DNA of 64,000 nucleotides, from NCBI GenBank assembly GCA_973895155.1, contig OZ316896.1, positions 19,208,754-19,272,753 on the forward strand. The letters run 5' to 3'. Positions 1,830 to 35,990 of this stretch are shown here, piece by piece (position 1 is the first letter of the stretch; each line of letters begins with the position of its first letter). This stretch comes from Marsupella aquatica (Eukaryota; Plantae; Marchantiophyta). The notes beneath the pieces are model-generated. The model worked only from the letters and a program-made list of their open reading frames with translations, was not told the origin of the DNA and made no database searches. Position numbers and translations under genes: made by a program.

Positions 1830-2553
1830 GGCATCATAGTAGTTGATGAGGGATCTGACATAGAGTTCAGTGTTCCCTCCAGCAAGGTAATCACATCTCT
1901 AGCATTCAACTCTAGGTCTTGGCAACTAAACAATGGAGTAGTGAGAAATTGGTGTGTCATGCCTGAAATATGAAACGGAGATGGTACCATGTGATCAGCT
2001 TTTGGTGATGCATCTGGTTGCTGTACATGCCCCCCTACTAAATTCAGATTTGAGGCACCAGTTGGCAAAGAAGCTAAGTCATTCCTGCCTCCCCGTGCCA
2101 ACAAGGTAGCCTCTGAGGTTGGAGTAAGTGGTCAAAACGATTGTGGTATGGTAGCTCTGGCACCCCTGGACTGTGTTATAGGACTAGATCCAAAGGCAAG
2201 GCCATCAGTTTGGACTACCCTCCAATTGGTAGCTGCACGGGTGGCCACACTAGCTTGCTAGTGTGCAAAGTATGAGGGGAAAATGAATTGGAGAATTCAC
2301 TAGTAAGACCAGTTGTGCGAGTGGGACCAACAACGTACTCTCCAACCATGGCATCATAAGGGAGGTTGTAGAAGGACCGTGGCAGCGATGTAGTACTGCT
2401 ACTTGCAAGAGCACCAGCCACAGGTTGAACATGACCTGCTGGCTGTATTGATTTGCCTTGGAGGGATGCCAATTGAGCGCGGACTGCCTCCAACTCGCTG
2501 GTCAATTCTTGCACCTGAGTAGCTTGAGCTTGAAGAACCTTCTTCTGAGCTAT

Positions 2554-5949: not shown

Positions 5950-7933
5950 CACAGAGAGCCAAAAAGCCCCTTTCAGAGACCTAACAAAGGCCAAGAAGGT
6001 CCTTGGGGAGACCAAAAAAGCCAAAAAGATGGTAAAGGAAATAAAAACAAAAAGAAAGAGCATTTTACAGGCTGCAGACCCCATCTAGTGGAGAAAACGA
6101 GGGAAAAGCCCATAAAGACCATGGAGTCCAAAAGCAACAATGTCAAAAGACCTACAATACAGTTCCCCTTGCATGCAGCGATAAAGCTAAAAACTCTTTA
6201 GGAACTTCCGTTGTAGAATTGAAGAGCTAAAGACTCTTTAAGAACTTCCGTGGTAGAATTGAAGAGCAACAAAACATGGAATTCCACGCATGCACAAAGA
6301 GGTGTTGTACGATGTAAACAAACATCATACAGTTTTGATAGCCAGTAGACTATTGTCGGGCAAGTCACCAACTGTTTCACCAAGTCACCAAGTTTTTTAA
6401 TTTCTTTTTTGATTTTTGTTGACTTTTATATTCTTAGTGCATTTTTAATACTCCTGAAATCTTGCTCACTTTTATATATATTAGTGCATTTTTAAGACTC
6501 CAAATGGCTTTTTAATACTTCTACCTTTCTCTCAATTTCTCTTCTCATCTTTTTGACTTCATGCTGGACAATAATCCGCACTCAAATCTACAGAGTCTTG
6601 GACCCACTGCAGCTGCAGCTGACAGATTCGGGGCACGAGAGGCCCCTTCCCTGACCTCGAATGCGCATAGAAACGTGTACAAATTTGCTTTTCTCTTCTC
6701 ATCTGCTTGACCGCAGACATTGTGGACCGTAATGCATCCAGCACGACACACTGGATGGTCTATTTGTAACTCTCCCCACCGAATTACAGATCCCACACTC
6801 ACGGACGACATTGGAAATCGAGGGTTTGCTTGCAGTCTTGGACGGAGAGTGTTGGACACCTTCGCACTGGCTACCGAAAGGAACCAGCTCACAGATTTTG
6901 GGCGAGAGGAAGCCTTTCCCTGACCGCGCTAGACTGTTTCCTGTAGTGAGAGATCTACTGGAGACCTGGGTTTATTGTGCATAGACTCCTGCAAAACGCG
7001 TGTGCAGACTTTACGGTTGGAAGAATGCGTCAGTGACTCCGCCATAGCCATTGCAGTGCAGAGCAGAACAAAACAGAGTACAGAAAACAAAGGAGAACGC
7101 CAGAGCAGAGGAGAGCGGTTAAGAGCAAGGCAAAAGAGAAGAGAAAAGAGAAGGCGAGGCGAGGCGAGGCGAGAGATATGGCAACGCAAACAAATGGAGA
7201 CTCGCCAGTCGAGAAGGACAATGCTGAATCAGTAGCGAACGGTGAGAAGGTGGATCCCTCCAAGAAGTTGCGACTCTTATGCCTCCACGGTTTCAGGACC
7301 AGCGGCAACATCATGGCTAAACAGGTTGAGCTCGCCAAGTGGGCTCCGCTCATTGACGACATTGCTGAATTGGTTTTCATGGATGCTCCATGGCCTGCAC
7401 AGGGAAAGTCTGACGTGGAGCACAAATTTGACGGCCCATACTATGAGTGGTATCAACACAGTGCGGGCTACAAAGAGGTCAGTGGCCTGGACGAAGCAAC
7501 ATCGCATTTCTCTGATTACCTCTCGTTGCACGGACCCTTCGATGGTCTCCTGGGCTTTTCGCAGGGAGCCTTTCTGGCAGCTGCTTGGATTGGCTTCAGT
7601 GAGAAGGATTTGGGGCCGAAGGTGCCAAACATTAAGTTCGTGATTGTGGTTGGAGGTGGTCGAGGTCTAGCAAAATACTTCCTCCCTGCCTACGAAGGCA
7701 ACATCAATTGTCCTTCGGTTCATTTCTTGGGTGAGAAGGACTTTACGAGGCCACACGGTGAATCGTTAGTCCAAGCATTCAACGATCCTGTTGTTATCCG
7801 ACATCCATATGGCCATGTTGTTCCCAGACTTGGTCCTAATGAAGGACAGATCTTGAGGGACTTCTTGCTGAAACAACAACAGGCTAAAATTGCATCTTGA
7901 GCTGGCAAGAATGTCCATGAGGACTCCAACATT
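5950..7933 (+). repeat. Arm A of inverted segmental duplication (upstream region plus serine hydrolase gene)
   Basis: Reverse complement of ~31555-33565. Shared blocks include agagagccaaaaag, caaaagcaacaatgtca, cttttatattcttagtgcattttt and ctcaaatctacagagtcttggacc, plus the CDS. Homology resumes at 11031-11108. Confidence 0.9.
7178..7900 (+). CDS. Serine hydrolase, FSH1/OVCA2 (DUF341) alpha/beta hydrolase family, copy 1, intronless
   Basis: 240 aa with LCLHGFRTSG, GPFDGLLGFSQG (nucleophile Ser), GEKD (Asp) and GHVVP (His). Confidence 0.93.
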   Translation: MATQTNGDSPVEKDNAESVANGEKVDPSKKLRLLCLHGFRTSGNIMAKQVELAKWAPLIDDIAELVFMDAPWPAQGKSDVEHKFDGPYYEWYQHSAGYKEVSGLDEATSHFSDYLSLHGPFDGLLGFSQGAFLAAAWIGFSEKDLGPKVPNIKFVIVVGGGRGLAKYFLPAYEGNINCPSVHFLGEKDFTRPHGESLVQAFNDPVVIRHPYGHVVPRLGPNEGQILRDFLLKQQQAKIAS

Positions 7934-12770: not shown

Positions 12771-14004
12771 AACTATGAGAGTGCATAGTCGAAGTTCATC
12801 AGTCTACTGCGCGTTTCGAGGTCCAGCTCAATTCGATGGAGGACAACAACAATAATGTCGCCTGGAGTGCTGCGAACTTCCGCCCGCGTTGCTGAAGAGT
12901 CTTAGGTGGACTAGAAGGTCAAAAGATGTCGGAGGCTGGCGGAGCACTGTGGAATCATTTCATCCAGTTTTTGGCTCCACACTTTAGAGTAAAGATCGAG
13001 TCGATGTTGTGCTCGGGGCATCCGCCTTACCTGTCAGGATTCGGCCGGGCTGGCGCAGCATCGAGACTCTCACTGGAGCTGCTGGTCAATTGTTTAAACA
13101 ACTGGGTCCCCCAAGGCCAATCCCGGTCACAGCGAGCTGTGTCCTTTCCTCCGGAGGGGAAGCTTCATAAACAAAGGGTTGACAGGCCCGTCAAGAGGGC
13201 AGAAAGGAGAGACGGATACCTCGCTGCATCTGGAGCTTTCAGTTCGGTGATTTCTGTGGGAGGAGAAGCTTATCATTGGAGAAATAGATTTGAACTGTCC
13301 TTTAGAAGGAGCTTCCGACAATTCTGAGCTGGTTTCATATTCAGAACGGGTAGGATTCACAAGCTCAGACCTCCCATCTTGTGCGATTGGCCTTGATGTA
13401 TCTTTGGATCCTTAGCCTAGTCGCCCCTCTTGTGGGGATGGGGATTAATTTCATTTGTCCTGTGTGTTGACATTGGAATGACCGGTGTATTTGTTGGTTA
13501 TGGATAGGACGAAGACAGGTGACTTGGCAGGCTGAAGAGGAGAGTACAAGCAACCAATTTGTTTCCGCCGTCCAAGCTCAACATCAAGTCCAACGCAAAT
13601 TCTTCGCCATGCGGCCGTCATAGCTCAACAGCTCAGCAACCCCCACTCTCCTCAATCGGGCCGTCTCATTCAAGTTCCTAGTACTACCAGACTGACGTCC
13701 ATTCCCCCATCCAAGCTTAATACCTGACCGCCCTACTGGGCAGAGGGCATTGAATGTGGAGGGAAATTATCATGCGTGTGGCAATTAGGTGCGATGTGGA
13801 ATTTTGTGGCATCCGCTCAGTAGCCAGGTTTTGGAAGCCTTGCTTGATCGACCATGTTATTTCGACTGGGATGATGCACCCTCGATTCATCCTACTAGAG
13901 AGCTGACGAGCAAGTTACAACGAAGGTTGTTTAACAGCTTAGCAGCCAGAGAGGAGGCAAGTCGGAAGTCAGTCTTGATCGCAAGAAAGGAGGAGGGTTG
14001 TGAC

Positions 14005-15561
14005 ATGAGAATGACGAGGAGGCGTTTCATTCTCTGCTTTACCTTGTTAACGCTGCTCATCAATGAGCAGTGCGAGGCATCTGGAGGGATGGGAGATGCC
14101 TTCGATAAAATGGATCCTCGTAAGTTGGCAGTCTGCCATGACAAGCTGGAAGAGTGGAACAATGTTAGCACGGCAGCACCGGAATCGCCTCCTTCGTTAG
14201 CGTCGGGCAATCGCTCAGCAGACTACTATATGAGAGGCAAGTGGAAGCCTATGCGTGGTGATTCCTCTTCTGTTGTAATTCCTTCATTTATCTCCGGCGA
14301 TCATGGGACGTTCCTTTTATACTCACCACGCGTAATGGGACTAGTGGAAGGGAAGGGAGGGCCCAGGATTCAAAATTTCAGTGGCAATTTGTATTTCCAG
14401 AGTAAGCAGAATCAGCTCAGAGGACCTCATGTGGCAGTGGCCGGTGTTTACAACAATGACTTGGGAGAGGCTTGCTTTGTTGGTTGCGTGCAACAACCTG
14501 TCCAACGATATCAAGCCCTAGCACCCACCACGGAAGTAACGCCAAACGGGACCAATTTGCGAAATGCGAATATATATGCTCTTCAGGTCAGCGATGAGGC
14601 TTGTATCGTTCGTGGGCTGTTGACTGCATCACGCGAGAAGGAGGGACGACGGAAAAGTGCCAGCGGAACTCTCTCGAGTCTCAGACTTCCCAATGAGACG
14701 GGATACTTCACAACAATGAGCTTGGATGGCAAAATAGTGTACACGAAGGATCAACGAAATCTTTATAGATGGGACCTTTTCGTGATGTTCACAATCTTTG
14801 CCGTCGAGGCAGTCATACTTATGTGGCAAATATTCCACAGCATAAGGTCTCCGTCGAGCTACTTCGTGTCAATGCTCATGATTCTGGTCCAGATTGTAGC
14901 CATGTGCTTCCTGTACATTTTTATCATCCTCCGCCCTTGGCGGCTGTATACTCTCAGGAGATTCAAGTACCTTCTGTCAGGTGTGCATGTCGCCCCCTGG
15001 CTGGTGCTGACCGTCGTCATCCTACTCAACGTTGTCTTCTTATTGGTGATTTTGAGAAAGAGACTGGTGGCCAAGCGGTTGAATGTGGTGGAGAGGCCAC
15101 AAGAGGTGCTTTTGGCCCTAATCTGCCTTGTCATCTATGCTCTCACTGGTGTGGGGGTATCCGCCCATAACTTTGAGACATATGTGCAGGTGGTGTGGTG
15201 CTGGTTTTTGCTCCCACAGGTCATTGCTAATGTGTTCTGGGACCTAAGGTTGAAGCCTTTGCATTGGGTCTATGTGGTGGGGGTGTCACTCTGCAGAATT
15301 ACTTACATCGGATTTAATGCTGCGAGGCCGACGATTTATGGATTCGACGACTTTAATGATTTCCCTCATGGCTGGTTTTGGGGAATCACGGGCACTGTGT
15401 CGATTTTCGGGTCTTATGCTCTTCTCCAGCAGCGCTATGGCGGCAGGGCATTCCTTCCTCAACGTTGGTTCGGGTATAAACAAATCCCCAGGTCAAAGGG
15501 CGAGGCCAACCACCAGGAGAACAATTTTGACTGGGACGACGACACAATGCTGGAACTTTGA
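14005..15561 (+). CDS. DUF2921-family multipass membrane protein (related to the TM region of FLY/TUL1-type E3 ligases, no RING), single exon, ~518 aa
   Basis: Signal-peptide-like MRMTRRRFILCFTLLTLLINEQCEA at ATG 14005. Luminal GVY...GEACFVGC motif, about 7 hydrophobic helices, FLLPQVIANVFWD..KPL...YVVG and LQQRYGGRAFLP motifs. Confidence 0.8.
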   Translation: MRMTRRRFILCFTLLTLLINEQCEASGGMGDAFDKMDPRKLAVCHDKLEEWNNVSTAAPESPPSLASGNRSADYYMRGKWKPMRGDSSSVVIPSFISGDHGTFLLYSPRVMGLVEGKGGPRIQNFSGNLYFQSKQNQLRGPHVAVAGVYNNDLGEACFVGCVQQPVQRYQALAPTTEVTPNGTNLRNANIYALQVSDEACIVRGLLTASREKEGRRKSASGTLSSLRLPNETGYFTTMSLDGKIVYTKDQRNLYRWDLFVMFTIFAVEAVILMWQIFHSIRSPSSYFVSMLMILVQIVAMCFLYIFIILRPWRLYTLRRFKYLLSGVHVAPWLVLTVVILLNVVFLLVILRKRLVAKRLNVVERPQEVLLALICLVIYALTGVGVSAHNFETYVQVVWCWFLLPQVIANVFWDLRLKPLHWVYVVGVSLCRITYIGFNAARPTIYGFDDFNDFPHGWFWGITGTVSIFGSYALLQQRYGGRAFLPQRWFGYKQIPRSKGEANHQENNFDWDDDTMLEL

Positions 15562-16519
15562 TATTCCTAAATGCCTCTTTTAAATATTTTCCATTCCCTC
15601 TGGTAACTGTCTTAGAATGCCAGTCGGCGAGGCTCATCGTTCAGCTTGTCATCGCTTGGAAGGCTGACAACAGAATCCACAGATTCTGTACATAGTCTCG
15701 GCAATAGAAGGGCTAGATGTCAGCTGTCTGTCAGGTCGTGTTTTGTGGGGCGACGAACAGGCAATTCATTTCCGGTCCAAGCTAGACATATCTGTTCCTT
15801 GTAAGATACAGTTTTGGAGAAGATTTTTCACAGTATACAGTCTAGTTTTGGTGGAGAAAATTCTCAGTCGTCGACAAGTCTCTCCGAACTTTACTTTATG
15901 TTGTAGCTTACGAGCTTCTATATATCGGTAAAAGATGTGATTACAGATGGGCACGATTTCATTAGCCCATTGTTGTACTCCTATAAATACAGTTCTTAAT
16001 GGAATCGGACTGGCACAATTTCTGCACCACTTGGCTTCTGGGTTGGTTTTCTTAAGCTAGCCTCTCCGGGAGGGCTCCCCGTTCACAGCTTGCACAACTA
16101 GCTATGAGCTTTAACCCCAATTCAGTCTTGTCCTTTGATGTCTGTAGGTTTTGGGAGACTACAGATGAGTTGCCAAGTGCATTCAGAGCTCATGACGTCC
16201 TGTCTGCAGAAGAGCTACGTTCAGCCTGGACAATCCTGCCTCTGGAAAATATTGCCCTCGGATTTACAAAGCAAGGTGCGACCTTCAGTGTAGTTATCGT
16301 GTAGCGTGTCATATTATTGTAAAAATTTACATAAGTAGGAGACCACCACTGTAGGAGAAATGCTGGACACCCCTGGAAAACAAGTTGGTCTTCTTGAGGA
16401 ATTTAGAATTTGATGTCATCTGGAGTGAACGCCCAGAAGAAGTCTTCTAGGGCTTTGTTTTCAATACCCAACGTGTCATTGCCTAGATTTTCGCAAAATA
16501 AAGACTCCCAGTCATCAGC

Positions 16520-17460
16520 ACACTTTTTTAGTGTTGCTTGGTGTCCACATTATGTACTGCAGATGTGCTCAGTGGAAATTCTTGAAATGTCCGGCAAACA
16601 GAATATTAGCTCTGTGACTCGTCCAATAATCCTTGTAGTTTTACTTCGTGTCCACATTATGTATAGCAGTATTGCTCGTCAGAAATATTGAAATGTCTAG
16701 CAAGCACAAATTTTGCTCTGTGACTCCTCAAGTTATTCTTTTAGCTTTGTCTGGTGTCCACACTATCTACTGCAGTTTTGCTCATCGGAAATTTCGAAAT
16801 GTCTTGCAAGCAGCTCTGTGACTCGTCAAGTTATCCTTTTAGCTTTGTCTGGTGTCCATACTAGCTTGTCGGAAATTTTGAAATGTCTCGCAAGCAGCAA
16901 GTTTGCTCTGTGACTCCCCAAGTTATCCTTTTAGCTTGGTTTGGTGTCCATATTATCTACTGCAGATTTTCTCAACGGAAATCTTCAAATGTCTCGCAAG
17001 CAGAATTTCGTTCTGTGACTCAAGTTATCCTTCTAGTTTGTGCCTGGTGTCCACAATATCTCCTGCAATTTTGCTCAAGGAAACTTTGAAATATCTAGCA
17101 AACAGAAATTTTGCGCTGTGACTCTAGTGATCGTTTAGTATTGATTGGTGTCCACATCATCTCCTGCAATTTTTGCTGAACGGAAGTTTTGAAATGTCCA
17201 CCAAACTGAAATTTTGAAATGGTCCACCAAACTGAAATTTTAAAATGTGACTCGAGTAATCCTTTTGGTTTTACTTGCTGTCCATACTGTCTACTTCAGT
17301 TTTGCTCAATGGTCATTTTAAACGTCTAGCAAACAGAAATTTTGCTGTGTGACTCGAGTAATAGTTATTTTGCTGTGTGACTCGAGTAATAGTTTTGCTC
17401 AATGTTCATTTTAAATGTCTAGTGGACAAAAAATTTGTTCTCTGACTTGAGTAATTCTTT
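16520..17460. repeat. Degenerate ~100-105-bp tandem satellite, about 9 units
   Basis: ggtgtccac...ttttgctc...gaaatgtct...ctgtgactc recurs near 16541, 16648, 16754, 16852, 16944, 17047, 17148 and 17279. Confidence 0.85.
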
Positions 17461-18309: not shown

Positions 18310-18820
18310 TTAACCAATACAATTCCCTGGCAAAGAGGCCCTAAAAATGCCCCAAGCCTGACCGGATAAACATAACATGGTCTAAAACTACCCGTGGCCA
18401 GATCCCAAGATCCCTTCACATGTACACGCACCACCAACAATGAGAAAGGCCATAAGTCTTACCAGCCGGCATAATATGACTATTGAGCTCCACTCCCCCA
18501 CTGCCATCTTGGTGGGTGTCCTGCAAGAGCTGTACAGCTTCAGTTGTGGCTCTTTCCAGCAGATCTGAGTATGCTTGAATGTTGGACGTAAGTCCATGCG
18601 GGTCCCTCGTGTAAAGGCCTCCAAAGACAACTCATTAGAGTTGTCCAAGGTTGGCCTAAGTGTTGCGTAAGTGTGTCGCCCACGTGGCTGGAGGAGAACT
18701 CCTGCAAGAAGGCTGCTCCGTGTACAGGTGCGGCGGCATTTAGGGTTTAACGCGCACCCACGGAAGTTCTCGACGTATTGTTGGGAGTATCCTCCTAGTT
18801 GGTCATATGGTAAGCATCAC
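18310..18820. repeat. Unit A of a diverged dispersed repeat (other copies ~29165-29420 and ~30008-30462)
   Basis: Shared blocks caatgagaaaggccataagt, gactattgag.t.cactcc, ctcctgcaa and agtatcctcct...tgg..aagca.cac. Confidence 0.8.
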
Positions 18821-19811
18821 GTATAGGATTAAGGGCTCTTCCCGTCCCATAATGGGGTATAGGGTCGAGCGTATGTGGAGGCCCCGTGGGTCATCTATTG
18901 CCCAAATATGGTGGTTCATTGTTCAACTATCAGCCATTATTTGTGCATTTTGGCTGTCTCATCGATTGCGCTGCAGTGTCCTTCGGACTTCTCATGTGGC
19001 CACGTCTTCAGTTGTGTGTGCGATGGAATATTGATGCAGAATTGGAGGTTGGCGAGCCGGAAGCATTGGAGGGCTTGGTCACTAGTCTGCATTCAAGCTT
19101 TCCATTGTTGTTGCCGTGATTTCATCTGCACAATGCTGCTGCCATCGATTCCTTAAGCGCCACTATTTTTATTCTGTTGATTTCATTTGCATGACGCTGC
19201 TGCCATCGATTCTTGAATTTCTATTGCCATTGAGTTCCTGCTGTAATTGCCGCGCGCTGCAATGGACTGATGAATGCGCAATTGCAAGTTGGTGAGCTGG
19301 AGGCATTGGAGGGACGGGCTGATGTTGTTCTTTCTAATCATTTGATTTTGTCATTGATTCTTGACACGAATCTTGCTCCCGGTTGCTATCGTCAATTGTT
19401 TGCTCACAACAGGAGGTCTGCAAGCAAGACGTGTTGGAGGGCCGGGTCACATTTTTTGTTGCTAGTTCTGTTCAGCTTTGCTGCTGCCATCGATCATTTT
19501 ATGCATGACATGATTGGCCTTTTTGCTGCCATGATTCATTTAGTGCTCCCGTCACTTCTGCCACCGATTATTTTAGACTGGTATTTTTGCGTGCGATTGC
19601 AGGTTGGCGAGTGTTGGAGAACTGCGCCACATTGTGCATTGTTGATGATCATAGACAAGCCACCGTTTAGCTTAGGAATCGAGTCAATGAAAGGCGCTGC
19701 CATCTCTGATGACACGATGAGTACTTGCTCGACTCAGTCCATGTTTAATGACAGCTGCTAGGCTGAGCTGCAGGAGTTGAATGCAAGCCTAGACAACTTA
19801 CATGTTGATGA

Positions 19812-20144
19812 TGTTGAACATAGACGACATTCGTAACAGCAAATCCAACGCACAATAGTCGACATAGAGAGATACGTGGTTCACCTCCACATGAGGCTAC
19901 GTGCACGGGAACACACAAGAGCTTTACTGCACTCTAGGCCGACCGGCCATACCAAGCATCCACAGCACAAACTCTCCCTATCTCTCAACTAGCTCCGTAA
20001 CAATGAGCCTAAGTTCCACCAGGGTCTGGCATCAGCCCTGGCTATATACACAATAGCACTACCACTAACATTAGCTAAGTCCTAACCCAAGTTAGCCTAA
20101 CTGTAGTTAGCTCATGAGTCACAAGACTAGAGCAATATCTAACA
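19812..20144 (-). repeat. Copia 3' LTR (333 bp)
   Basis: Matches 26184-26736 except about 7 transitions, an 11-bp indel and the MITE. Confidence 0.95.
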
Positions 20145-20351
20145 AACTCCCCATTGACTCTGGTCTTGGGGACTGAACTAAATGCAACCATATGGAATCC
20201 TCAGCGGGAAGTTCTAGACAATCACCAAACCAGGTCTCCCCCTAAAAACCACAAGGGTTAACTAAGGGTTAACTAGAACTAAGCCGTAGCCTAACAGGAA
20301 TACGTAATCCATATACAAATAGTCACACATTGCTAAATAACTCTACTTGCA

Positions 20352-23300
20352 CTACAACTGCAAAACTTGCAAAGTAGCACGGTGTCTTGAGAAACTCTCC
20401 AAAGGAATCACTTTGGTAAAGGCATCAGCGGGATTGAGCTTTCCATCAATCTTGACTAGCTCAAAAGTTTTATCAGACACTGCTTGCCTGATAAAATGGT
20501 ACCTGATATCAATGTGCTTTACCCTGCTATCCATCACCTGGTTAGCAGCCAAGTGAAGAGCACTCTGACTATCACAGTTTAGAGATATTTTGCCATGCTC
20601 TAAACCCATCTCCGCGATCAACTTATCTAACCAAATTGCTTCCTTTGTTGCTTCTGCTGCTGCAACATACTCTGCTTCTGTAGTAGACTGAGATATCACT
20701 TCTGCAAAGTAGATTTCCAATTGATACATCCTCCTCCAAGAGTGTATACAAACCCAGTTGTAGACCTCCTTGTATCCAGACAGCCTCCGTAGTCAGAATC
20801 TACATAGCCAACTAACGTTCTATCTGATCTGTTATCAAATAGTAATCCATAGTCTTGTGTTCTCCTTACATACCTGAGAATCCATTTCACACCTTCCCAA
20901 TGTACCTTCCTTGGATTTGACATGAATCTGCTAACCTTGCCCATCGCTAGGGCCAAGTCAGGCCTATTACAAGTCATCAAATACATCAAACTTCCTACTG
21001 CCTTCTCATAAGGAATCTTAGCCATCAGACCTTTCTCCACAACATCCATAGCAGAGAAAGCCGATGATAACTTGAAATGTGAAGCTAAAGAAATACTCAC
21101 TGGCTTACAGTTGTCCATGTTGAATTGTGCAAGTACTTTCCTCGCATACTGGCCTTGACTCAAGCACAACTGTCCAGTTTTAGAGTTCCCAAAAATCTCC
21201 ATCCCTAAGATCCTCTTGGCCTTACCAAGATACTTCATCCTGAATTCAACACTCAATTTTGCCTTGAGACTGTCAACCTCAGATTGATCTTTAGCCACAA
21301 TTAGCATGTCATCCACATAGATCACCAGAATGATGAAACCAAATACATCATTCTTAACTGATTTTGTATACACACAAGGATCATATACCATCCTTGTAAA
21401 ACCTTGAGCAAACATGAAATCATCAAACCACTTGTTCCACTGTCTGGGAGACTACTTCAATCCATACAAGGACTTGAACAATCTGCAAACTAAGTTCTCT
21501 TGGCCCTTCTTCATAAAGCCTAGTGGCTGTCTCATGAAGATCAACTCTTCCAAGTTGCCATAGAGAAAAGCAGTAACAACATCCATCCGATCCATTACCA
21601 GACCAAAAAATACAACAAGTTGACACAAGATCCGAATTGTGGAATACTTTGCCACCGGTGAAATGACCTCATTGTAGTCCACTCCTTTCTCCTGAGTGAA
21701 CCCCTTGGCAACAAGCCTTGCCTTGTAGATCTTATCTCCACCCTCTGAAGGACTGTCCTTCAACTTGTAAATCCACTTGCTATCCACCACTTGCTGACCT
21801 CTTGGAAGCTCCACCAGCTCCCATGTCTTGTTGTCACTCAAAGATTGCAACTCCCTCTGCATTGCTGCATTCCACTCATGCTTCTATTCTGAAGCACAAG
21901 CCTCACTGTACGAAGAAGACTCTCTTTCTTCCAAGATCAAAGCCATGTCATCATCATCAGGTGCAATGTCAATATCATTTAACTTAGATGAGTCTACCGA
22001 TTGACCATACCTAGTAGGAGCTCTAGTAGAACGACTGAAAGTTCTTTTAGTAGATGACTCAGGCTGATCTGCTGTTGCTGCTGGTTGAATTTGAGGTACC
22101 CCAACAACAATCTGCTCCTCTTGTTCCATCACAGGAACCAGCTCCAACCCCGGAGCTTCTCCATCTCTCCTGTCATGAACAACATCATGACTAATCTCCC
22201 CCTCAACCCGGTCCGGGATGGGAGATTTCCCCTTGTCAGTATGGGAGTCTTGAGAACTCTCCCCCTCCTTTGATGATCTAGACTCATTAAAGGACACATC
22301 TCTACTGATAATTAGCTTACAGGTTACTGGATCCCATAACCTATAACCCTTTACACCTTTATGATAGCCAAGGAAAATGCACTTCTTCGACTTGGACTCC
22401 AGCTTGGATCGAAGCTGGGAAGGTGTAAGCACATAAGCATCACATCCAAAAATCCTTAGATATGAGTAATCTGCTGGACGCCCGTACCTCATTTCAAATG
22501 ACGTCTTGAATCCAATAGAACTGGATGGAGAAAAATTTACCAAATAAGCTGTAGTCTTGACAGCTTCAGCCCAAAACTCATGTGGTAAGTATGATTGACT
22601 CAACATACTCCTCGAGCGGTCCAATAGTGTCCAGTTGATTCTCTCAAAAACACCATTCTACTGAGGAGTATAACTTGTTGTGAGATGGCGGGTAATCCCC
22701 TGATCCTTACAATACGTTCCAAATTCCCCGAAACTGTATTCACCGGCGTTATCAGATCAAAGATATCTCACCTTATTACCAGTCTGATTCTCTACTTGGG
22801 CTTTCCACTCCTTAAAAGTGACAAAAATATCAGACTTATTGTGTAGAAAGTATATCCACACATACTTTGAGTAATCGTCAATGAACGTGACATAGTATAA
22901 TCGTCTAGAATGCGAGGGAGTAGGGGCTGTACCCCACACATCACTATGTACATACTCAAGTACCTCCTTGCTGGTGTGAGTTCCAACTCCGAAGGGTTTC
23001 CTGTGCTGCTTCCCTAGCACACAATGCTCACAAAATTCCAACTTACAAGATTGCAAATTAGAAAGTAATCCTTTTTTCTGAAGAATAGCCAAACCTTTTT
23101 CACTCATGTGGCCCAAATGGAAGTGCCACAGTCGGGCCGTCTCCTCATGAGATAAGGTTACATTGGCTTTATCACAGACTACACTGCCCTCCAAAACGTA
23201 TAGATTGCTATGTCTCTTTCCTTTCAATACAACTTTAGTACCAGTTGAAACCTGAAGGACAGCATTAGCAGAGCTCCACTGATGACCATTTGCTTCTAAA

Positions 23301-24625
23301 ACTCCAAGTAAAATGAGATTTTTCATCATGTTGGGAATATGTCTCACATTCCTCAACGTTCTCACAGCACCATCAAACATCTGAAATCTTACAGATCCAA
23401 GTCCAACAACTTGACATGGGATTCTATTTCCCATCAACACTGACCCGTTGGAAACCGTGTAAGAACTGAAAAAATCTCTCCTAAAGCAAATGTGAAAAAT
23501 ACATGCACTATCTAGAATCCAGTCATCACTACCTGGATTTGACACTAAGTTGAGAGCATAACCTTGGCATCACAATATGTCATCATCATCGAGTAAATCT
23601 ACCTCATGCGAACTCGATGTCGCGTTAGCAGATGCAGTAGGGACCTTTACTCGACAATCCCTTTTCATGTGGCCAGGCTTGCCACAATTCCAACATGCAA
23701 GAGGCTTCCTCTCTTGCGATTTCCCTCTGGATTTAGATCTCCCTCGTGATGTAGATCTAAACCTGTTCTGCCCATGCGTGCACTGCGCTGCTCTCCTATG
23801 ATTCACGTTCAGCGTAGTGCCAGAAGAAGATGTTGTCTGTGATTGATCCAACTTCTTCTGAGCATCATCAGACAATAAAGAGCTCACCACTTCATTATAC
23901 GAAATGGACTTCAGATCTCTGTACAAGAGCACCTATTTCAAGCCCTGATATGACGGCGGTAAGGAGCTTAGCAGAAGCAAGGCCTTATCCTCATCTTCAA
24001 CTCCTTTTCCCAGGTTTGTCAGATCCACCGCTAGACTGTCAAACTCATCCAGATGATCCTGCATCTTGCTCCCTTCCTTGAGCCTGAGGCTCATCAAGAG
24101 AGACTTCTTGTACAGCCGGTCTGACGCATCTTCCCGGTAGTACTTCTCTCTTAGAGCCTTGAACAGTGATGTGCAATCCATATAATTATCCAGTTGCTTA
24201 ATGATGTGCGGCTTGAGATAAAGCATCACTGCATTAACAGCAATCACCTGCTCCTGTCTCCACTGTCTCACAGAAATCTCCTCCTCTCCATCATACTGCT
24301 CTTGCGAAGAAAGCAGATGAGCTAAGCCCATGGCCCGTAGAACACCCTTCACTTGCTTCTCCCAGAGCAAGTAATCAGTACGGCCATCGTACTTCTCCAC
24401 CTCAAACTTCACTCCTCCAAATCTAGCCATCTCCCTCTTCTTCCCAACTACCGACAGCTCTGGTAGTAATACAGCTTCCTCCACTGCACGCCGCACCGGT
24501 GATCGTACCATTGATACAAGTTCCTCCTCAAATGGTAGCAGCTCCTCCTCAGACTCTCTGTCTGATCGTCGCGATCCTGAAGCTCCACCGACGCCAATTC
24601 TTCCCGTATCCTCCGAGTCACTCAT
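20352..24625 (-). pseudogene. Copia gag-pol polyprotein with several in-frame stops and one frameshift near 20700
   Basis: VKFEVEKYDG (gag), CWNCGKPGHMKRDC, WILDSAC (protease), LWHFHLGH...CEHC and YVHSDVWG (integrase), YKARLVAKG and YVDDML (RT), VDSDYGG and STTEAEY...KHIDIRYHFIR (RNase H). Confidence 0.95.
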
Positions 24626-26169
24626 ATAAAACAATCATGAAAAAACATCTTTTTTTTGAAACTTCTCATAAAACTCAAAACTCAATACCGCCGCGTAGCC
24701 CACGAAGCTAGGAGTCCAATACTGAAAGCCAAAATCAAAATTGAAATTTGACGGAAAAGTTATTCAAATTTTGGTCGGGGTGGGTAAAACCTTGGAAAAC
24801 TCCCCCGTTTTGACCACCTCAGAGAATAACCAAAATACCCAGTACAACCCGTCGTCAAAATTGCAATGTGATCAGTGCGCCGCGTTGCCAACTCCAGTGG
24901 CAACATCCTCGCCAAAAAAGAATCAAAAAAGTTACCGTTCGGCAGACAGAATCTTTGTCGAACGGCCGAAAAACAGCTCTCTGTTTTTTGGGAATATTCC
25001 TGCACAGTCCGACAGGTCTCACAGCGGGCCGTTCCCCCTGTCCAAGCGGTTAAAATGGAGGGCGGCAGGTCCAGGCACAAGGAGAACAAGAAGGAGGGAG
25101 AAAAAGTTTAAAAAAAGGCCCTTAAAGGGGGTGTTAAGCCCCTTAAAGCCAAAAATACCAGTATAAAAAAGGCGCAAAGGGGGAGCACGCGGGTCGGGTG
25201 GTACGCCCGGGGGGTACAAGAGCGGTTGTGTACGCAGCCGCGTACGCCGGTGTACAGGGGTAAATGGGGCCTTGCCTGTGCAGGGGGCGTGAGGCGAGAA
25301 TGGGCCGGGAGGGGCTAGCCGGGGTGCGCGCCAGCCAGCGCTGCGGACCCCGCCTGAAAAATGGGGTGCGGGGGGGGGGCGGCGTACAACCTGGTACTTG
25401 AGGCCAGGTTTGAGGTGTGTGTATACACCTCGTATACACACACAAAGGGGCCCAATTTAACCCCTAAAAAGCCAAAAATTACTCCCCCGGGAAAAAAGAA
25501 GAAAAGACTCACCTAATGGCCACCAATTTAAGTGAAGAAAGTGAACGCCGCCGACGGGAAATATTTTTGAATTTCACCGACACAGTCTGTAGCTCCAGTA
25601 GAGAAAAAAAATTCTGCCACATCGCCTTCACTCCGCGTCAAGTGCCAATCCCGGGCTCAAAATGACCGTCTCGCTGTGATCAAACCGTTGAGCCGTAGCA
25701 CTTTGCGTTTCTTCCACCGAGTCGGACGTCACGAGGAGTAACCTGGTTCAGATATGAACAAGCTCCATAGCTTGTGAAAAAACTTGAACGCCTCCTTACT
25801 CGTCACAACGCACTCGGTCACAACTCGACAGCAACTCAGCTACCAAAACAACCAGCTTGCTTCAACCTTCAACTTGAGCTATAATGTGCGATCCCTCCCG
25901 CACCGCACAACTCACACCGTTGAAAAACGCAAACTCAGGTCTCTCCCCCAAAATACCGTCGAACACGAATAAACCCTAAACGACGCAACTTCAATTCCTC
26001 TGCACCACGGATACCGATCAACGAGTTCTAACCACTGTTAGAAAGCCCTCTCACTAACCTATCCGCACAGCCACACACATTCGAGTTTCATGCGACGAAA
26101 CTCCGAATGTACCATCGACAATGAACGCTGGAAACCTGTCACAAAAAAACCTCGTCACCTCCCAAGCAT

Positions 26170-26181
26170 GCTCTGATACCA
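26170..26181 (-). promoter_or_regulatory. Primer binding site, initiator Met tRNA
   Basis: gctctgatacca on the + strand equals TGGTATCAGAGC, 2 nt inside the 5' LTR. Confidence 0.93.
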
Positions 26182-26183
26182 CT

Positions 26184-26736
26184 TGTTGAGCATAGACGAC
26201 ATTCGTAACAGCAAGCCCATGAACCATCCAACGCACAATAGTCGACACAGAGAGATACGTGGTTCACCTCCACATGAGGTTACGTGCACGGGAACACACA
26301 AGAGCTTTACTGCACTCTAGGCCGACCGGCCATACCAAGCATCCACAGCACAAGCTCTCCCTATCTCTCAACTAGCTCCATAACAATGAGCCTAAGTTCC
26401 ACCAGGGTCTGGCATCAGCCCTAGCTATATACACAATAGCACTACCGCTAACATTAGCTAAGTCCCTTGGGCCCTCAGTCTTAACTAATACGTGGAGGAC
26501 GTGCGAATGCTTGAAGGATAGTTTTTATTAATTTTGAACTAATAATTATAATTATTACCGGTAATAAGGAAAATTTTAATAGCAAAATAGAAATAACAAG
26601 GGGTAAACAGGAAAGGGCCTGATCGCAGGGGGTCCACTTCTTTTACATGGAGTGAGGGCCCAGGGGCTAAGTCCTAACCCAAGTTAGCCTAACTGTAGTT
26701 AGCTCATGAGTCACAAGACTAGAGCAATATCTAACA
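26184..26736 (-). repeat. Copia 5' LTR (553 bp, including MITE)
   Basis: tgttgagcatagacg...gcaatatctaaca, adjacent to the PBS. Confidence 0.95.
26465..26665. mobile_element. 201-bp MITE with 13-bp TIRs and 8-bp TSD (hAT-like TSD length)
   Basis: TIRs ccttgggccctca / tgagggcccaggg (1 mismatch). TSD GCTAAGTC at 26457-26464 and 26666-26673. The other LTR has a single GCTAAGTC (empty site). Confidence 0.88.
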
Positions 26737-28811
26737 GATGAGCGTCCTAAGAAGGACCCTATTGTGATCGAAGTGTAGGGTCGAGCACCTGTAGAATTTC
26801 TCGCTGAAGACCCACAGTTTCAGAAGACCCTTTCCGAGGGTGGTTCTAATTCGAGCGCTGCTGTGGATAAATGGGCAGTCAACCGCTTGACTCGATTTCG
26901 AGAGTTCAGAGGATGGGATACGATAGTTGCATTTGAGGACCTCTCTTTGGCTGAATGTGCCTCAATTCTAATCAATTTTTTTGAGCAGATCTGTAGGAAG
27001 GACGACAGCTTGCATCCAACCCAAACATTAATGGGATTATACCGTGCATTCCATCGAGTATTGAGGCACTGACAGGAAGTGCAAATTGTCCAGATAGGGA
27101 AGGACGAGCCCATATTTCATATGCGCGAGAGTCCTTTGTTTAAGCAAGTTGGCATTGCTTGCGTGTTAGCCATGGAACGCTCAAGATCTAATGGTGCTAA
27201 TTTGCCTCGCAAAAAGGTATCTGTCATCTCGTTGGCTGATGAGTCCACCATTTTGTCTCACCCTTGCACAACCACTATTCATCCTCGTGGCCTGCAACGC
27301 CGTGTAGTGTATTTCCTTCTATTTCGATTTGCCATTCGTGGAGGCAACAAGTTACATCGATTGGCAAAGACAGACTTCGAAATTGGCTGCAATGAGAATG
27401 GACCATTTGTAAAATACGATGAGCGTCTATCCAAGAACTACAAAGTTGGTCTCGGTCGGTATCAGGATGAGCATTTTTGTCCTGCTGTAACCAGCTACGA
27501 CACTTCCATGGTTGAAACTATTCAGAGTTTGATTTCTTACTTGCCTGCTGCTGGCATATTTCTTTTTTATCAATGCATTGATAGTCCCCGCACTCATGCA
27601 TGGTACTCGACCCAGCGTGCATCTATGAAGAAGTTGAGTGGCATTCTGAAGGAAATACATAGGGAATGTGGTTTGGTTATAGACGGTGTCACTAACAAAT
27701 CTGGTAGGACCACATCATGTGTTACTCGTATGGCGACTGAAGGCATTCCTGCAGAAGTTGGGATGATAATTACAGGCCATAAGAGCCAAGGTGCCTACTC
27801 TTGATATGATCGCAACATAGAGTCGAAGGTCATAGCGGCCCAGAAATGCGCCAGTGGTTCATCTAGTTTTGAAGCAAACTTTCATAAGGAGACAGAACGC
27901 TTCAAGCAGAAGGTGGTGAATGGAGATGATGACGATGGCTCGCCTAACAAGTTATGGAAGAAGGGAGATGAAGGTACTCTTGTGCTATTTTTGTCATGTT
28001 GATCGGGATGTCGATCTGCAGCCTTTTGAATATCTGCAACCTTACTAATTTGTGTAATTTTTCTGCTGATGCAGATATGGCTCCCGCTGTTGGGTACATC
28101 CCTCCAACAGCAGGTCTAGGAGTGCAAGAGACTCCTGCAATGATCGAGAGCCCTACCACAACTGAGGCGACGACTGCTCTTAATGAGATGGTTCCTATGG
28201 TGATTGAGTTGACTCCCATGATTGAGAGCGAATTATCTTGTGAAGTGAGTGCAGATGGTAAGGTCGACTGGAAGGATGACGGTTGGGTCGACGACTACAA
28301 CTGGGATGAGCATTTTGAGAATTTTCGGCCCAGCTCTGTTGTTGTGAATCCTGTTCAGGCACTTTTTACAAAAGTTCAATCGATCACCAACTGCACTATT
28401 TCAATTTCTATTGGAAAGCTGGGGAACTAATGTCGTAGTTACTTGTAGATTGATTGTAGTAAGCTGGCCTGCATGGCACTCTTGCTCAGTAGTTAGGACG
28501 TGCGTTAGACGAAGATATTAGAGACAGTAGATACTAGTATTGCCTGCACATGGTTTTGTCATACAAACCACATAGTGTTCACGGGAATTGGTCAGATGAC
28601 CCTTATTGATGTAATTTTTTCAATTGTTCTCAATAAAGTTTCACTCTCCACCGCGGGAGTTTTCATTTTTCAAAAAAAGTTATATCAACCATACGTGAAC
28701 CGTATAAAACTAAGGTATAAAATAATGAGATATCTTTCACCCAAAAAGTGCTAACGTGGCAGCAGCCTAAAGCCCCCCAAAACATTACAACCATCCGATG
28801 ACCTTAACGAT

Positions 28812-29779: not shown

Positions 29780-30013
29780 TTGCCTCGGGCAAATTCAATA
29801 AGGCATAATTCAATAGCTCCAGGTTTTGCCTTATCGAATGAATTGAATGAACGCACCTTGCCTGGGGCAAATTCAATAAGGCATAATTCAATAGCTCCAG
29901 GTTTTGCCTTATCGAATGAATTGAATGAACGCACCTTGCCTGGGGCAAATTCAATAAGGCATAATTCAATAGCTCCAGGTTTTGCCTTATCGAATGAATT
30001 GAATGAACGCACC
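29780..30013. repeat. Three near-identical 78-bp tandem repeats, each with an internal 13-bp inverted repeat
   Basis: Unit ttgcctggggcaa-attcaataaggca-21 nt-tgccttatcgaat-gaattgaatgaacgcacc; period 78. Confidence 0.95.
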
Positions 30014-31482
30014 TCCAGCAATGAGAAAGGCCATAAGTATTACCAGCACGCGTAACGTGACTATTGAGGTGCACTCCTGGAGCGTCATTTCCGTAGGCGT
30101 CCTGAAAAGCTGTGAACAGCTCCAGTGGTGGATCCCTGCCAGCGGCACCCGAGGCTGATCGAGCCCATTTCCGAGATGCAATGCTTGGACGACGTACGCT
30201 CGATGCCGGGATGAGTCGGGACACAGTTTCCTGACGTAGTGTGCACAGCGCACTGTGCGTGATTCACGCATGTTTAGGAGGGGATGAAAAGATCTCCGGA
30301 GTTGTATAGGCTCCTGCAAAGATTGTCCGGGGATGTGCGGGCTTGCCATCTATCTGCCCATCACAAGTGGAGATGCGAAGTCAAGACCCGCACTGAAGTC
30401 GGAAAGTCGCACGATGTCTGATCGGAAGTATCCTCCTCGTGGTACCGTGGCGAAGCACCACCGCGCTGGAACGCCTACACTTTTGGTTGGACTGGAAACC
30501 GACTGCTGGACAGGTATGAAGATTGGGATTTCGTAGAGTTCCATGGAGGCAGCTCTCACCGATGATTTGAAAACTAATCATTACGAATCGGCAACATTTT
30601 GAAAGAGTTTTAAATTGGAAATTTAATTGAATTGTGAGCAATATTGGCAGACTTTTGTATCGATTTCAAAAGGTCTAGGCGAATTAATTGGAGCTAATTC
30701 GTCTTATCGAACAGGAGCAATGGAAGAGTGGGTTCCTCTTCGTAGGACAGTGAGACTGACAGCGAAGAGGCTGAAGAGGCATCTGATGCACACTCAAGTT
30801 AGCAGCTACATGGTAAACAAGTCTTGGCGATATGGCGACCTAGACATCTATTATGTCTTCTTCTGCATACTGTTATGGTGCGATTTTAATGACTTGATCA
30901 TTCCATGTTTGAACAGATAGTGGTAAAACGTTTCCTTCTATCAACACATTTCATGCTTGGGTAGCATTCCCTTCGGTGCTGTGAAGACAATCCAAATTGG
31001 TTTAAAAGCGAATCATGCAAACCAACTTTGAGATTCTTCCCAGTCAACTGCTGTGAGTCATATGCCATATTTGCAACGAGGCGCCAGACGACTAGGATGC
31101 GAGCCTAGCACAAAACTGCTTATACATATGGGCAATATGACAGGGAGCTTGCATGCTAAAGACAGCCTTTGATGGTCGAAGACCAAGAAACAGATGATAG
31201 ATGTAATCTCTGTAGACAATTGATAATGCCGAGAGTACAAAGCATGAACTAGGATACCCCTCGAGTATCAGCACCATCTTGTACTTCCATAATCTTGTCA
31301 GCCAACCGTAGAATTACGATATTGCACTCCCATTTGCACTTTCGGATTCAAAGAGCGCATCACATCTCGGCCACCCCCTCTTCACTACCGTTACTCGACC
31401 AGAACCTTGTTCGTTATTTTTGTCAAGAAAAAATTGGATGCCCTTGACATACTGCGCAGGATAAAAACCAAGGAACCGCCAC

Positions 31483-33565
31483 AGTATGAGCTAAATGCAA
31501 GAATTATATAGGTGTGTAGTAGACTATACTGTTGTACCCGTTGTGAGATAATTTGCAATGTTGGCGCCCTCATGGACATTCTTGCCAGCTCAAGATGCAA
31601 TTTTAGCCTGTTGTTGTTTCAGCAAGAAGTCCCTGAAGATCTGTCCTTCATTGGCACCAAGTCTGGGAATAACATGGCCAGCTGGATGGCTGATAACAAC
31701 AGGATCTTTGAATACTTGGGCTAACGATTCACCGTGTGGCCTCGTTAAGTCCTTCTCACCCAAGAAATGTACCGAAGGACAATTGATGTTGCCTTCGTAG
31801 GCAGGGAGGAAGTATTTTGCTAGACCTCGACCACCTCCAACCACAATCACGAACTTAATGTTTGGCATCTTCAGCCCCAAATCCTTTTCACTGAGGCCAA
31901 TCCAAGCAGCTACCAGATATGCTCCCTGCGAATAGCCGAGGAGACCATCGAAGGGTCCGTGCAACGAGAGGTAATCAGAGAAATGCGATGTTGCTTCGTC
32001 CAGGCCACTGACCTCTGTGTAGTCTGGACTGTCTTGATACCACTCATAGTATGGGCCGTCAAATTTGTGCCTCACGCCAGCCTTTCCCCGCGCAGGCCAT
32101 GGAGCATCCATGAAAACCAATTCAGCAATGTCGTCAATGAGCGGAGCCCACTTGGCGAGCTGAACCTGTTGAGCCATGATGTTGCCGCTGGTCCTGAAAC
32201 CGTGGAGGCATAAGAGTCGCAACTTCTTGGAGGGATCCACCTTCTCACCGTTCGCTACTGATTCAGCATTGTCCTTCTCGACTGGTGAGGTTCCATTTGT
32301 TTGCGTTGCCATCTCTCTCGCCTTGCCTTCTCTTTTCTCTTCTCTTTTGCCTTGCTCTTAACCGCTCTCCTCTGCTCTATTGTTCTCCTTTGTTTTCTGT
32401 GTTCTGTTTTGTTCTGCTCTGCACTGCAATGACTATGGCGGAGTCACTTGCGCATTCTTCCAACCGTAAAGTTTGCACACGCGTTTTGCAGGAGTCTATG
32501 CACAATAAACCCAGGTCTCTAGATCTCTCAAGACAGGAAACAGTCTAGAGCGGTCAGGGAAAGGCTTCCTCTCGCCCAAAATCTATGAGCTGGTTCCTTG
32601 CGGTAGCCAGTGCAAATGTGTCAACACTCTCCGTCAAAGACTGCAAGCAACACCTCCATTTCCAATATCTTCCGTGGCACGGTGTGGGATCTGTAATTCG
32701 GTGGGGAGAGTTTAAATAGACCATCCGCTGTGTGGTGCTGGATGCATTACGGTACACAATGTCTGCAGTCAAGCAGATGAGAAGAGAAAGCAAAAGCAAA
32801 CTTATACTGTAGACGTCTCTGTGCTCATTCGAGATCAGGGACATGCTTTCCTTGCTCTTGCCCAGAATCTATCAGCTGCGGTCGGTCCAAGACTCTGTAG
32901 ATTTGAGTGCGGATTATTGTCCATCATGAAGTCAAAAAGATGAGAAGAGAAATTGAGAGAAAGGTAGAAGTCTTCAAATCAGCTGCGGTCGAGAAGAGAA
33001 ATTGACAGAAAGGTAGAAATCTTAAAATCAGCTGCGGTCGGTCCAAGACTCTGTAGATTTGAGTCCGGATTATTATCCATCATGAACTCATAAAGATGAG
33101 AGGAGAAATTGAGAGAAAGGTAGAAGTCTTAAAAGCCACTTGGAGTCTGAAAATGCACCAAAAATATAGAAGTGAACAATAATCAGAAGTATTAAAAATG
33201 CACTAAGAATATAAAAGTCAACAAAAATAAACAAGAAATTAAAACACAGTTGGTAACTTAGTGACAACAGTCACCTGGCTATCAAAATTTTTGTTGGTTT
33301 ACATCATACAACAACTCTTTGTGCATGCGTGGAATTTCATGTTTTGTTGCTCTTCAATTTTACTGCGGAAGTTCCCAAAGAGCCTTTAGCTTTATCCCAA
33401 AGAGTCTTTAGCTTTATCGCTGCAAGGGGAACTGTAGGTCTTCTGACATTGTTGCTTTTGGACTCCTTTTCTCCACTAGATTGAGCTCCTTTACCATCTT
33501 TTTGGCCTTGATGGTCTCCCGAAGGACCTTTTTGGCCTTTATTATGTCTTTTTGGCTCTCTAAAA
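31483..33565 (-). repeat. Arm B of inverted segmental duplication
   Basis: Reverse complement of 5950-7933 joined to 11031-11108. Has an internal local duplication at ~32870-33130. Confidence 0.9.
31590..32312 (-). CDS. Serine hydrolase, FSH1/OVCA2 family, copy 2, intronless
   Basis: 240 aa, about 89% identical to copy 1 by manual count. GYSQG, GEKD and GHVIP triad intact. Confidence 0.93.
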   Translation of the reverse strand: MATQTNGTSPVEKDNAESVANGEKVDPSKKLRLLCLHGFRTSGNIMAQQVQLAKWAPLIDDIAELVFMDAPWPARGKAGVRHKFDGPYYEWYQDSPDYTEVSGLDEATSHFSDYLSLHGPFDGLLGYSQGAYLVAAWIGLSEKDLGLKMPNIKFVIVVGGGRGLAKYFLPAYEGNINCPSVHFLGEKDLTRPHGESLAQVFKDPVVISHPAGHVIPRLGANEGQIFRDFLLKQQQAKIAS

Positions 33566-34779: not shown

Positions 34780-35990
34780 CCCTCCACCAACTTTGCAGCA
34801 TGCATTGTTTCTCACGGGATCCATGACAGAAAATCCCCATCTGGACAAGAATTGCCTCTCACGGAATAGAATGCGATCCCATCAGAATCGAGAGCAGGAA
34901 ACGATTCGCACAGAACAGAAAGTAATTCCACCGAGAATAAGAATCGCCTCACAGAGCAGAAACCGGACCTCCACCAACTTTGCAGCGTGCATTGTTTCTC
35001 ACCGGATTGCTCTCTATTCCATGACAGACAGTCCCCATCTGGAACAAGAATTGCCTCTCACGGAGTAGAATGTAATCCCATCAGAATCAAGAACAGGAAT
35101 CGACTCTCACAGAGCAAAAAGCGGACCTCCACCAACTTTGCAGCGTGCATTGTTTCTCACTGGAGTGCTCTCTATTCGATGACAGACAGTCCCCATCTGG
35201 AACAAGAATTGCCTCTCACGGAATAGAATGTAATCCCATCAGAAGCAAGAACAGGAATCGACTATCACAAAGCAGAAAGCAGACCTCCACCAACTTTGCA
35301 GCATGCATTGTTTCTCACTGGATCACTCTCTATTCCATGAGAGACAGTCCCCATCTGGAACAAGAAGTGCCTCTCACGGAGTAGAATGTAATCCCATCAG
35401 AATCAAGAAGAGATCGACTCTCACAGAACAGAAAGCAGTCCCACCGAGAACATGAATCGCCTCTCACAGAGCAGAAAGCGGACCTCCATCAACTTTGCAA
35501 CGTGCATTGTTTCTCACCGGATTGCTCTCCATTCCATGAAAGACAGTCCCCATCTGGAACAAGAATTGCCTCTCACGGAGTAGAATGTAATCCCATCAGA
35601 ATCAAGAAAAGATGAACTTTGTTTCTCACCGGATCGCTCTCTATTCCATGAGAGACAGTCCCCATCTGGAGAATGTAATCCCATCAGAATCAAGAAGAGA
35701 TAAAATTTGTTTCTCACAGGATCACTCTCTATTCCATGAGAGACAGTCCCCATCTGGAACAAGAATTGCCTCTCACAGAGTAGAATGTAATCGCATCAGA
35801 ATCAAGAAGAGATGAACTTTGTTTCTCACAGGATCGCTCTCCATTCCATGAGACAGTCCCCATCTGGAACAAGAATTACCTCTCACGGAATAGAATGTAC
35901 TCCTATCAGAATCGAGAATTGATCGACTCTCACAGAACAGAACGCAGTCTCACCGGGAACAAGAATCGCCTCTCACAGAGCAGAAAGCAG
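34780..35990. repeat. ~158-bp tandem satellite with longer and truncated variants
   Basis: ccaccaactttgcagc near 34784, 34971, 35129 and 35287. cagtccccatctggaacaagaattgcctctcac recurs about 8 times. Confidence 0.92.

Follow-up and report, generated by a model that had tools for sequence, protein, structure and literature searches.

The stretch of DNA analyzed here (the window) covers 64,000 nucleotides of the liverwort Marsupella aquatica (GenBank assembly GCA_973895155.1, contig OZ316896.1, positions 19,208,754 to 19,272,753 of the forward strand). It carries a tyrosine recombinase (YR) gene that is split by a Copia long terminal repeat (LTR) retrotransposon and lies within an element of 3,058 bp (18822-28809, Copia excluded) with the triplet ACG at both ends. 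We read this locus, with a probability of about 0.85, as a dead copy of a multi-copy, YR-only DNA transposon family. The features of the locus, numbered from the first letter of the window, are as follows:

18819..18821, + strand: ACG, left copy of a 3-bp direct repeat (target or element core), from the junction alignment
18822..19811, + strand: left arm of 990 nt, with the terminus TATAGG..., the 5' region and the start of the YR open reading frame (ORF), from a depth step
18820..18890, + strand: terminal 70 bp common to the commoner class of copies, which diverges after 18890, from loose ends in four of four sequencing runs
19645..19811, + strand: YR exon 1 before Copia, with the likely start ATG at 19645 and the stop TAG at 19759
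19807..19811, + strand: left copy of the Copia target-site duplication GATGA, directly outside the LTR
19812..26736, - strand: Copia LTR retrotransposon, from its LTR pair and domain matches
26465..26665, no strand assigned: 201-bp miniature inverted-repeat transposable element (MITE) in the Copia 5' LTR, with a 13-bp terminal inverted repeat (TIR; 12/13 match) and an 8-bp duplication
26737..26741, + strand: right copy of the Copia target-site duplication GATGA, directly outside the LTR
26742..27973, + strand: main part of YR exon 1, with the core-binding and catalytic domains and stops at 26776, 27070 and 27802
27974..28074, + strand: phase-1 GT-AG intron of 101 nt, inferred from the sequence and from exon-2 homology
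28075..28430, + strand: exon 2, with an acidic linker, a C-terminal N-C-x-I motif and the stop TAA, from homology
28431..28806, + strand: 3' region with AATAAA at 28632-28637, ending ...GACCTTA, from the sequence and a depth drop after 28806
28807..28809, + strand: ACG, right copy of the 3-bp direct repeat, from the junction alignment
30385..30538, + strand: empty paralogous site, from a gapless alignment across the joined element flanks

Removing Copia, one GATGA and the intron restores, as the initial annotation of this DNA had proposed, a reading frame of 1,713 nt (570 aa) with 4 internal stops, counted from the ATG at 19687. An in-frame ATG at 19645 (584 aa) is more likely to be the true start, judging from the sequence, since relatives also carry near their N-terminus the F-S-L-G motif that directly follows this codon. 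The YR frame contains 3 stops per 411 codons, compared with 12-32 in the five other frames. All of the stops are TAG or TGA standing in CAG/CGA-type contexts, as the decay of methyl-cytosine would give. The predicted order of catalytic residues, R...K...[H/K]xxR...H...Y, was borne out by alignment, with six motif residues in place: Arg 27337, Lys 27433, Lys 27697 and Arg 27706 (together K-x-x-R), His 27778 and Tyr 27805. Stop 27802 immediately precedes this Tyr, which aligns to the Tyr of 42/42 animal-side rows of the tree described below. The window copy also has one surplus codon near 27713, which is missing from some other contigs. Exon 2 is backed by three relatives that share its C-terminal motifs (E 6e-10 to 6e-7 in a set of 342 proteins). 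Separately, a GULLO2 match on exon 2 (E 0.009) was judged to be a chance match.

That Copia splits the YR gene was confirmed by the LTR pair (19812-20143 and 26184-26736, both TG...CA), by GATGA on both sides, and by the Copia domains inside, which profile matches on the minus strand identified as gag, protease, GAG-pre-integrase, integrase and RVT_2. The two LTRs differ by 7 transitions per 332 columns, one 11-bp indel and the MITE, which we take to be hAT-like from its 8-bp duplication; at an assumed rate of 1e-8 per site per year, Copia would be roughly 1 million years old. The nesting is four levels deep (local repeat, Crypton, Copia, MITE). Because of it, we infer that the element would have entered the local degenerate repeat before Copia entered exon 1 of the element, and that the MITE would have entered the Copia LTR last.

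We then considered the ends of the element. The limits first assigned to it (18820..28810) agree within 2 nt with the mapped ends at 18819/18822 and 28809. The surroundings consist of a degenerate local repeat, and 30385-30538 is a paralog of that repeat which aligns to the joined flanks with a score of 88, compared with 34 for the left flank alone and 60 for the right flank alone. In 500 shuffles, the control score had a mean of 16.6 and a maximum of 28. The best 8 junction pairs at this empty site share one common register. The earlier statement that the element has no long TIR stands, as window repeat and junction comparisons found no long repeats at its ends; what had gone unreported is the direct repeat of ACG (3 bp) and an inverted symmetry of 9 bp, which is weak. 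Once joined, the ends read CCT..ACGT..AGG, nearly a palindrome about the core.

Copies of the family were read from the contigs of four public sequencing runs, which come from two studies, carry two organism labels and include one run that may share the source of the window. In all four runs, summed contig depth (which is not equivalent to copy number) rose from 20-150 in the left flank to 600-3357 at 18820-18859. The loose ends at 18819, 18821 and 18822 showed a consensus agreement of 0.48-0.6, as would be expected from many different flanks, and the consensus triplet at these left ends reads ACG, ATG or ATA in other copies. On the right side, depth after 28806 fell from 282 to 33, from 899 to 7, from 2477 to 233 and from 1077 to 62, and the terminal sequence of a sister subfamily is GACCTTAAACG, with ACG. 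Thus, sharp ends, varied flanks and divergent copies (four of four runs, both studies) mark the family as multi-copy and interspersed. After the first 70 bp, depth dropped to 72-363 at 18900-18939, and the abundant class sharing only 18820-18890 probably represents non-autonomous or sister elements. A deletion form joining 27126/27134 to 28328 was present in three of the four runs.

The same contigs inform the history of the window copy. In X4, a contig joins left-arm sequence straight to 26737, and therefore Copia-free copies exist. At three of the four stops (19759, 27070 and 27802), other contigs have C and the codon is open; stop 26776 lies outside the rows listed. An identical contig spanning the left junction (18620-18848) was recovered in all four runs; therefore, the insertion seen in the window is common to both organism labels. 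In X2, two contigs carry a motif resembling the right end just before 18828, which could reflect a tandem arrangement, a circle junction or a mixed consensus.

To which enzyme family does the recombinase belong? The annotation called for a check against DUF3504 and Phage_integrase profiles; the response was weak on the window copy itself, and further matches came from its relatives, with profile-profile and fold comparisons in agreement. Close relatives share 52-62% identity and include two Calypogeia fissa proteins. DUF3504 was matched in six of eight of them and Phage_integrase in three of eight (at E up to 1), and Riccia P0116 exceeded the DUF3504 cut-off with 31.7 bits. When hhalign was run against 17 remoter relatives, 16 of them DUF3504-bearing proteins of animal type and one from Riccia, it gave 100% and E 3.5e-50 over 337 columns, and the nearest clusters in a protein atlas were mollusc and cnidarian DUF3504/Phage_integrase proteins (0.98). 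The fold predicted for an intact relative, P0005, whose core has a predicted local distance difference test score (pLDDT) of mostly 80-93, matched Tre/Cre in Foldseek (E 5e-8), Cre with Z 18.3 (root mean square deviation 3.5 A over 294 residues) and QRICH1 with Z 13.1. These matches support a DUF3504-type recombinase, with a predicted Cre-like fold, for the window family. No reverse transcriptase (RT) or DDE domain was found between the element ends or in the plant relatives scanned; the RT matches near the locus all lie inside Copia, and the 3,058 bp of the element hold only the YR ORF. The proposal of a Crypton-class, YR-only element is thus supported by profile and fold matches, by the lack of RT between the ends and by the multi-copy family. 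Three findings had been set beforehand as refuting it, namely no profile match, linkage to RT/RNaseH, or a single domesticated copy, and none of them holds.

A HMMER scan returned 489 proteins at E up to 0.001, of which 150 were listed. Among the 30 clusters looked up, 18 were named plants, 2 were animals and 10 lacked an organism name, and no fungus, alga or seed plant was named. The plant hosts were Calypogeia, Riccia, Marchantia, Ceratodon, Selaginella, Diphasiastrum and Adiantum. In two metagenome locus scans, no confirmed relatives were found. A quick tree was then built from 73 rows, picked by core coverage or name from 342 fetched proteins; it omits short fragments, is unrooted and was made with no bootstrap, identified fungal row or Repbase reference. 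One side holds 21/21 named plants (liverworts, a moss, lycophytes and ferns), the window copy and 9 further rows, and the other holds 12/12 named animals and 30 further rows, a grouping that is partly circular in that rows lacking names were labelled from the tree itself. The two sides are separated by a long branch with an SH-like approximate likelihood ratio (SH-aLRT) of 100.

Plant-branch proteins are 31-62% identical to the query and differ from the animal side in their motifs. Lys replaces the His of H-x-x-R in the window copy and in 20/31 plant rows, whereas the animal side has His in 42/42. Conversely, K-x-x-x-G(G) follows the catalytic Lys in 39/42 animal-side rows and in 1/31 plant rows. 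All six catalytic positions are kept in 12/31 plant-branch rows. The window copy lacks the His of the R-H-R-Y tetrad used to define CryptonA, and the element was filed as CryptonA-related, not as CryptonA proper. Ceratodon encodes four ORFs of 970-975 aa (P0011, P0161, P0162 and P0163) that are 98-99.8% identical and retain the complete set of motifs; each is on a separate large contig, the four contigs differ in length, and the locus tags give differing chromosome numbers. Such similarity suggests recent spread and marks these ORFs as candidate genes of an active element. In UniRef, proteins of Ceratodon and Marchantia already bear the label "DUF3504 domain-containing". Adiantum P0018 has pentatricopeptide (PPR) repeats ahead of the YR and is likely an annotation chimera, because two near-identical paralogs lack these repeats.

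Some plant relatives appear to have left transposition behind. MPTK1_5g04240 of Marchantia polymorpha (Mp5g04240; P0029) and Mapa_012797 of M. paleacea (P0223) are identical at 571/603 positions (95%) and have lost both the second catalytic His, that of T-G-H, and the K-x-x-R context; this gene is a probable domesticate. In lycophytes, a PAXX-like head and a coiled coil are fused to a truncated YR that lacks the catalytic Arg, K-x-x-R, His and Tyr (Selaginella P0045 and P0056, Diphasiastrum P0037, and the Logan protein P0216). Pfam profiles gave no name to the N-terminal domain of the fusion, which matches Arabidopsis PAXX (8P26; plant PAXX is treated in the preprint 10.1101/2023.05.26.542399) at E 7.8e-13 by sequence and E 5e-8 by fold. 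The Selaginella and Diphasiastrum fusions are identical at 341/674 positions. As the fusion occurs in both lineages, which split ~400 million years ago according to the portion consulted of 10.1101/2023.07.24.548637, it dates the plant branch, and the YR lineage in land plants is likely older than 400 million years. We hypothesize that the fusion is a probable ancient domestication linked to end-joining.

Several points weigh against reading the locus as a dead copy of a mobile YR-only family. The DUF3504 match of the window copy is weak (16 bits, cut-off 29.7; E 0.013), and the fold model is that of P0005, with a mean pLDDT of 62, and not of the window copy. Solved structures searched by sequence with the alignment of the close relatives gave 0 matches. 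The Lys in place of His departs from the expected motif, although by analogy it may be compatible with activity, as in type IB topoisomerases and protelomerases. At the right side, the loose-end rows listed do not include the window subfamily's own end. The direct repeat is only 3 bp, shorter than the published 4-6 bp, a single site is compatible with a fixed core or a 3-bp target duplication alike, and the constancy of the triplet comes from consensus lines of 3-8 contigs with an agreement of 0.5-0.7. Finally, no circle, excision or intact copy of the window family was seen.

With moderate confidence, we favor a model in which the family moved by crossover at the ACG core. The model is drawn by analogy with Chlamydomonas CryptonF and with Goodwin's model of Crypton movement, as described in the sections consulted of PMC3212892 and PMC13465315. 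The recombinase would bind both element ends, bringing them into a near-palindrome around an ACGT core, and crossover between the two ACG copies would excise the element as a circle. The circle would then insert into a different ACG-like site and end up flanked by a single ACG at either end, and the short derivatives would move in trans.

The same ends could belong to a DDE-type cut-and-paste element that is non-autonomous, duplicates 3 bp of its target and holds the YR gene as cargo. The 3-bp direct repeat, the weak 9-bp inverted symmetry and the MITE-like look of the abundant derivatives that share the first 70 bp would fit such an element. We nevertheless consider it very unlikely, given a triplet that stays ACG, ATG or ATA over independent flanks, with ACG also at the right end of the sister subfamily, the lack of any DDE gene in an element that the YR fills, and a catalytic set kept in liverwort, moss and fern copies; moreover, non-autonomous Crypton derivatives are already on record (PMC3212892, in the part consulted). 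A YR retroelement of DIRS/Ngaro type, reduced by deletion of its RT, is suggested by an ALOG/Phage-integrase atlas cluster (0.97) and by the ALOG likeness of the N-terminal domain of the P0005 model (Z 5.5), as plant ALOG genes reportedly derive from DIRS1-type elements (PMC3537659, in part). This origin is largely refuted and highly improbable: RT, inverted terminal repeats and split direct repeats are all missing between the ends, the full-length moss ORFs carry no RT, and the sequence is of DUF3504 type, to which the YRs of DIRS and Ngaro show no match in the consulted part of PMC3212892. Scarcely credible, too, is a pseudogene of a domesticated host gene. The intron and the domesticated-looking relatives in Marchantia and lycophytes speak for it; the sharp ends, the many flanks, the empty paralogous site and the divergent copies in four of four runs refute it, unless the runs include other organisms from which those contigs derive.

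The initial annotation had also raised horizontal acquisition from symbiotic fungi. Glomeromycota, which hold ~1,800 DUF3504 CryptonA copies (Glomhoppers), do live in bryophyte thalli, according to the available part of PMC13465315, and could have supplied the family recently. As a recent event, such an acquisition was not supported by the comparison, in which the tree holds no identified fungal sequence. The plant proteins form one branch from liverworts to ferns, fungal names number 0 in 30 clusters and 0 in 10 organism-named rows, and K-x-x-x-G(G), present in 1/31 plant rows, was seen by eye in most of the 26 Glomeromycota rows consulted in the Glomhopper supplement. Six plant taxon names and five short motifs were absent from the searched part of that supplement, whose rows end before H-x-x-R. 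Motif and host range argue against membership in Glomhoppers, with a tree that contains no identified Glomhopper, and a recent fungal arrival is accordingly very improbable; a transfer long ago, to early land plants, is possible.

Beyond the element, two FSH1 serine hydrolase genes, at 7037-7900 (+) and 31590-32357 (-), form an inverted pair that brackets the whole region; they are 94% alike over 779 nt, and the similarity extends upstream. An uninterrupted 590-codon frame at 13789-15561 (+) has DUF2921 transmembrane E3-ligase-type domains. At 2554-3825 (-), a gag-like frame of 423 codons, in which a zinc knuckle was weakly matched (E 0.012), is probably another retroelement remnant, and 43179-46012 (-) holds exons of a plant-type 2-oxoglutarate dioxygenase (DIOX_N, 2OG-FeII_Oxy). 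Tandem arrays lie at 16500-17460 (degenerate units of ~100 nt), 29780-30014 (78 nt x3, 99%), 34800-35990 (units of 158-200 nt) and 50641-51015 (125 nt x3, 100%).

How does the dead copy of a YR-only transposon described here relate to known systems? The published hosts of Cryptons are fungi, animals, stramenopiles and one green alga. Our comparison draws on parts of PMC13465315, PMC3212892, PMC9977147, PMC11630846 and PMC10288648. Animal CryptonA (Kojima and Jurka 2011, PMC3212892) resembles the plant family in having a single DUF3504-type YR and no GCR1_C domain, in its non-autonomous derivatives (probable in the window family), and in a C-terminal N-C-x-I/F motif (10/42 animal-side and 5/31 plant rows). 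In contrast, the plant family sits on a separate long branch, has K-x-x-R and land-plant hosts, and has a defined 3-bp direct repeat, whereas the consulted text of PMC3212892 reports that terminal repeats were not found in animal Cryptons. Glomhoppers, which are reported to nest within animal CryptonA, likewise have a DUF3504 YR with catalytic residues, introns and a residence in nested repeats; unlike the window element, their ends could not be delimited and they have the animal-type motif after the catalytic Lys (PMC13465315, as far as consulted). Chlamydomonas CryptonF-1_cRei is a green-lineage Crypton with a terminal CACCG matching the target CAYCG and with clean excision; it differs in being CryptonF, not DUF3504-type, with a 5-bp core and activity shown (PMC9977147, in part). 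Replitrons have similar hosts (liverworts, mosses, lycophytes and ferns, with none detected in seed plants), but their enzyme is an unrelated HUH endonuclease (PMC10288648, in part). KCTD1, KIAA1958, ZMYM2-4 and QRICH1 belong to the same fold family (QRICH1, Z 13.1), and the plant branch contains seemingly parallel cases in which catalytic residues have been lost; the window copy, unlike these domesticated genes, belongs to an element of mobile type that is present in many copies. The literature yielded no description of a Crypton or DUF3504 lineage from land plants, with Repbase and most subscription journals outside the scope. This is consistent with the initial suggestion that the family may be undescribed, and the land-plant branch, from liverworts and mosses to clubmosses and ferns, seemingly is.

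A broader picture, which we put forward tentatively and at slightly less than even odds, is that seed-free plants have their own DUF3504-type transposon superfamily, more than 400 million years old, which inserts through site-specific recombination at a 3-bp ACG core, still moves in Ceratodon and has been domesticated at least twice, including the PAXX fusion. For the DUF3504-type Cryptons of animals and Glomeromycota, searches had turned up no terminal repeats, so that their movement has been untestable. The base-exact ends, the core and the empty site described here supply a substrate for such tests, and the near-identical intact Ceratodon ORFs, from a model moss, provide a candidate enzyme. 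Plant genes that are probable domesticates parallel KCTD1, ZMYM and QRICH1 of animals, and the PAXX-recombinase fusion, if true, would connect end-joining in plants with the DNA-binding fold of a transposon.

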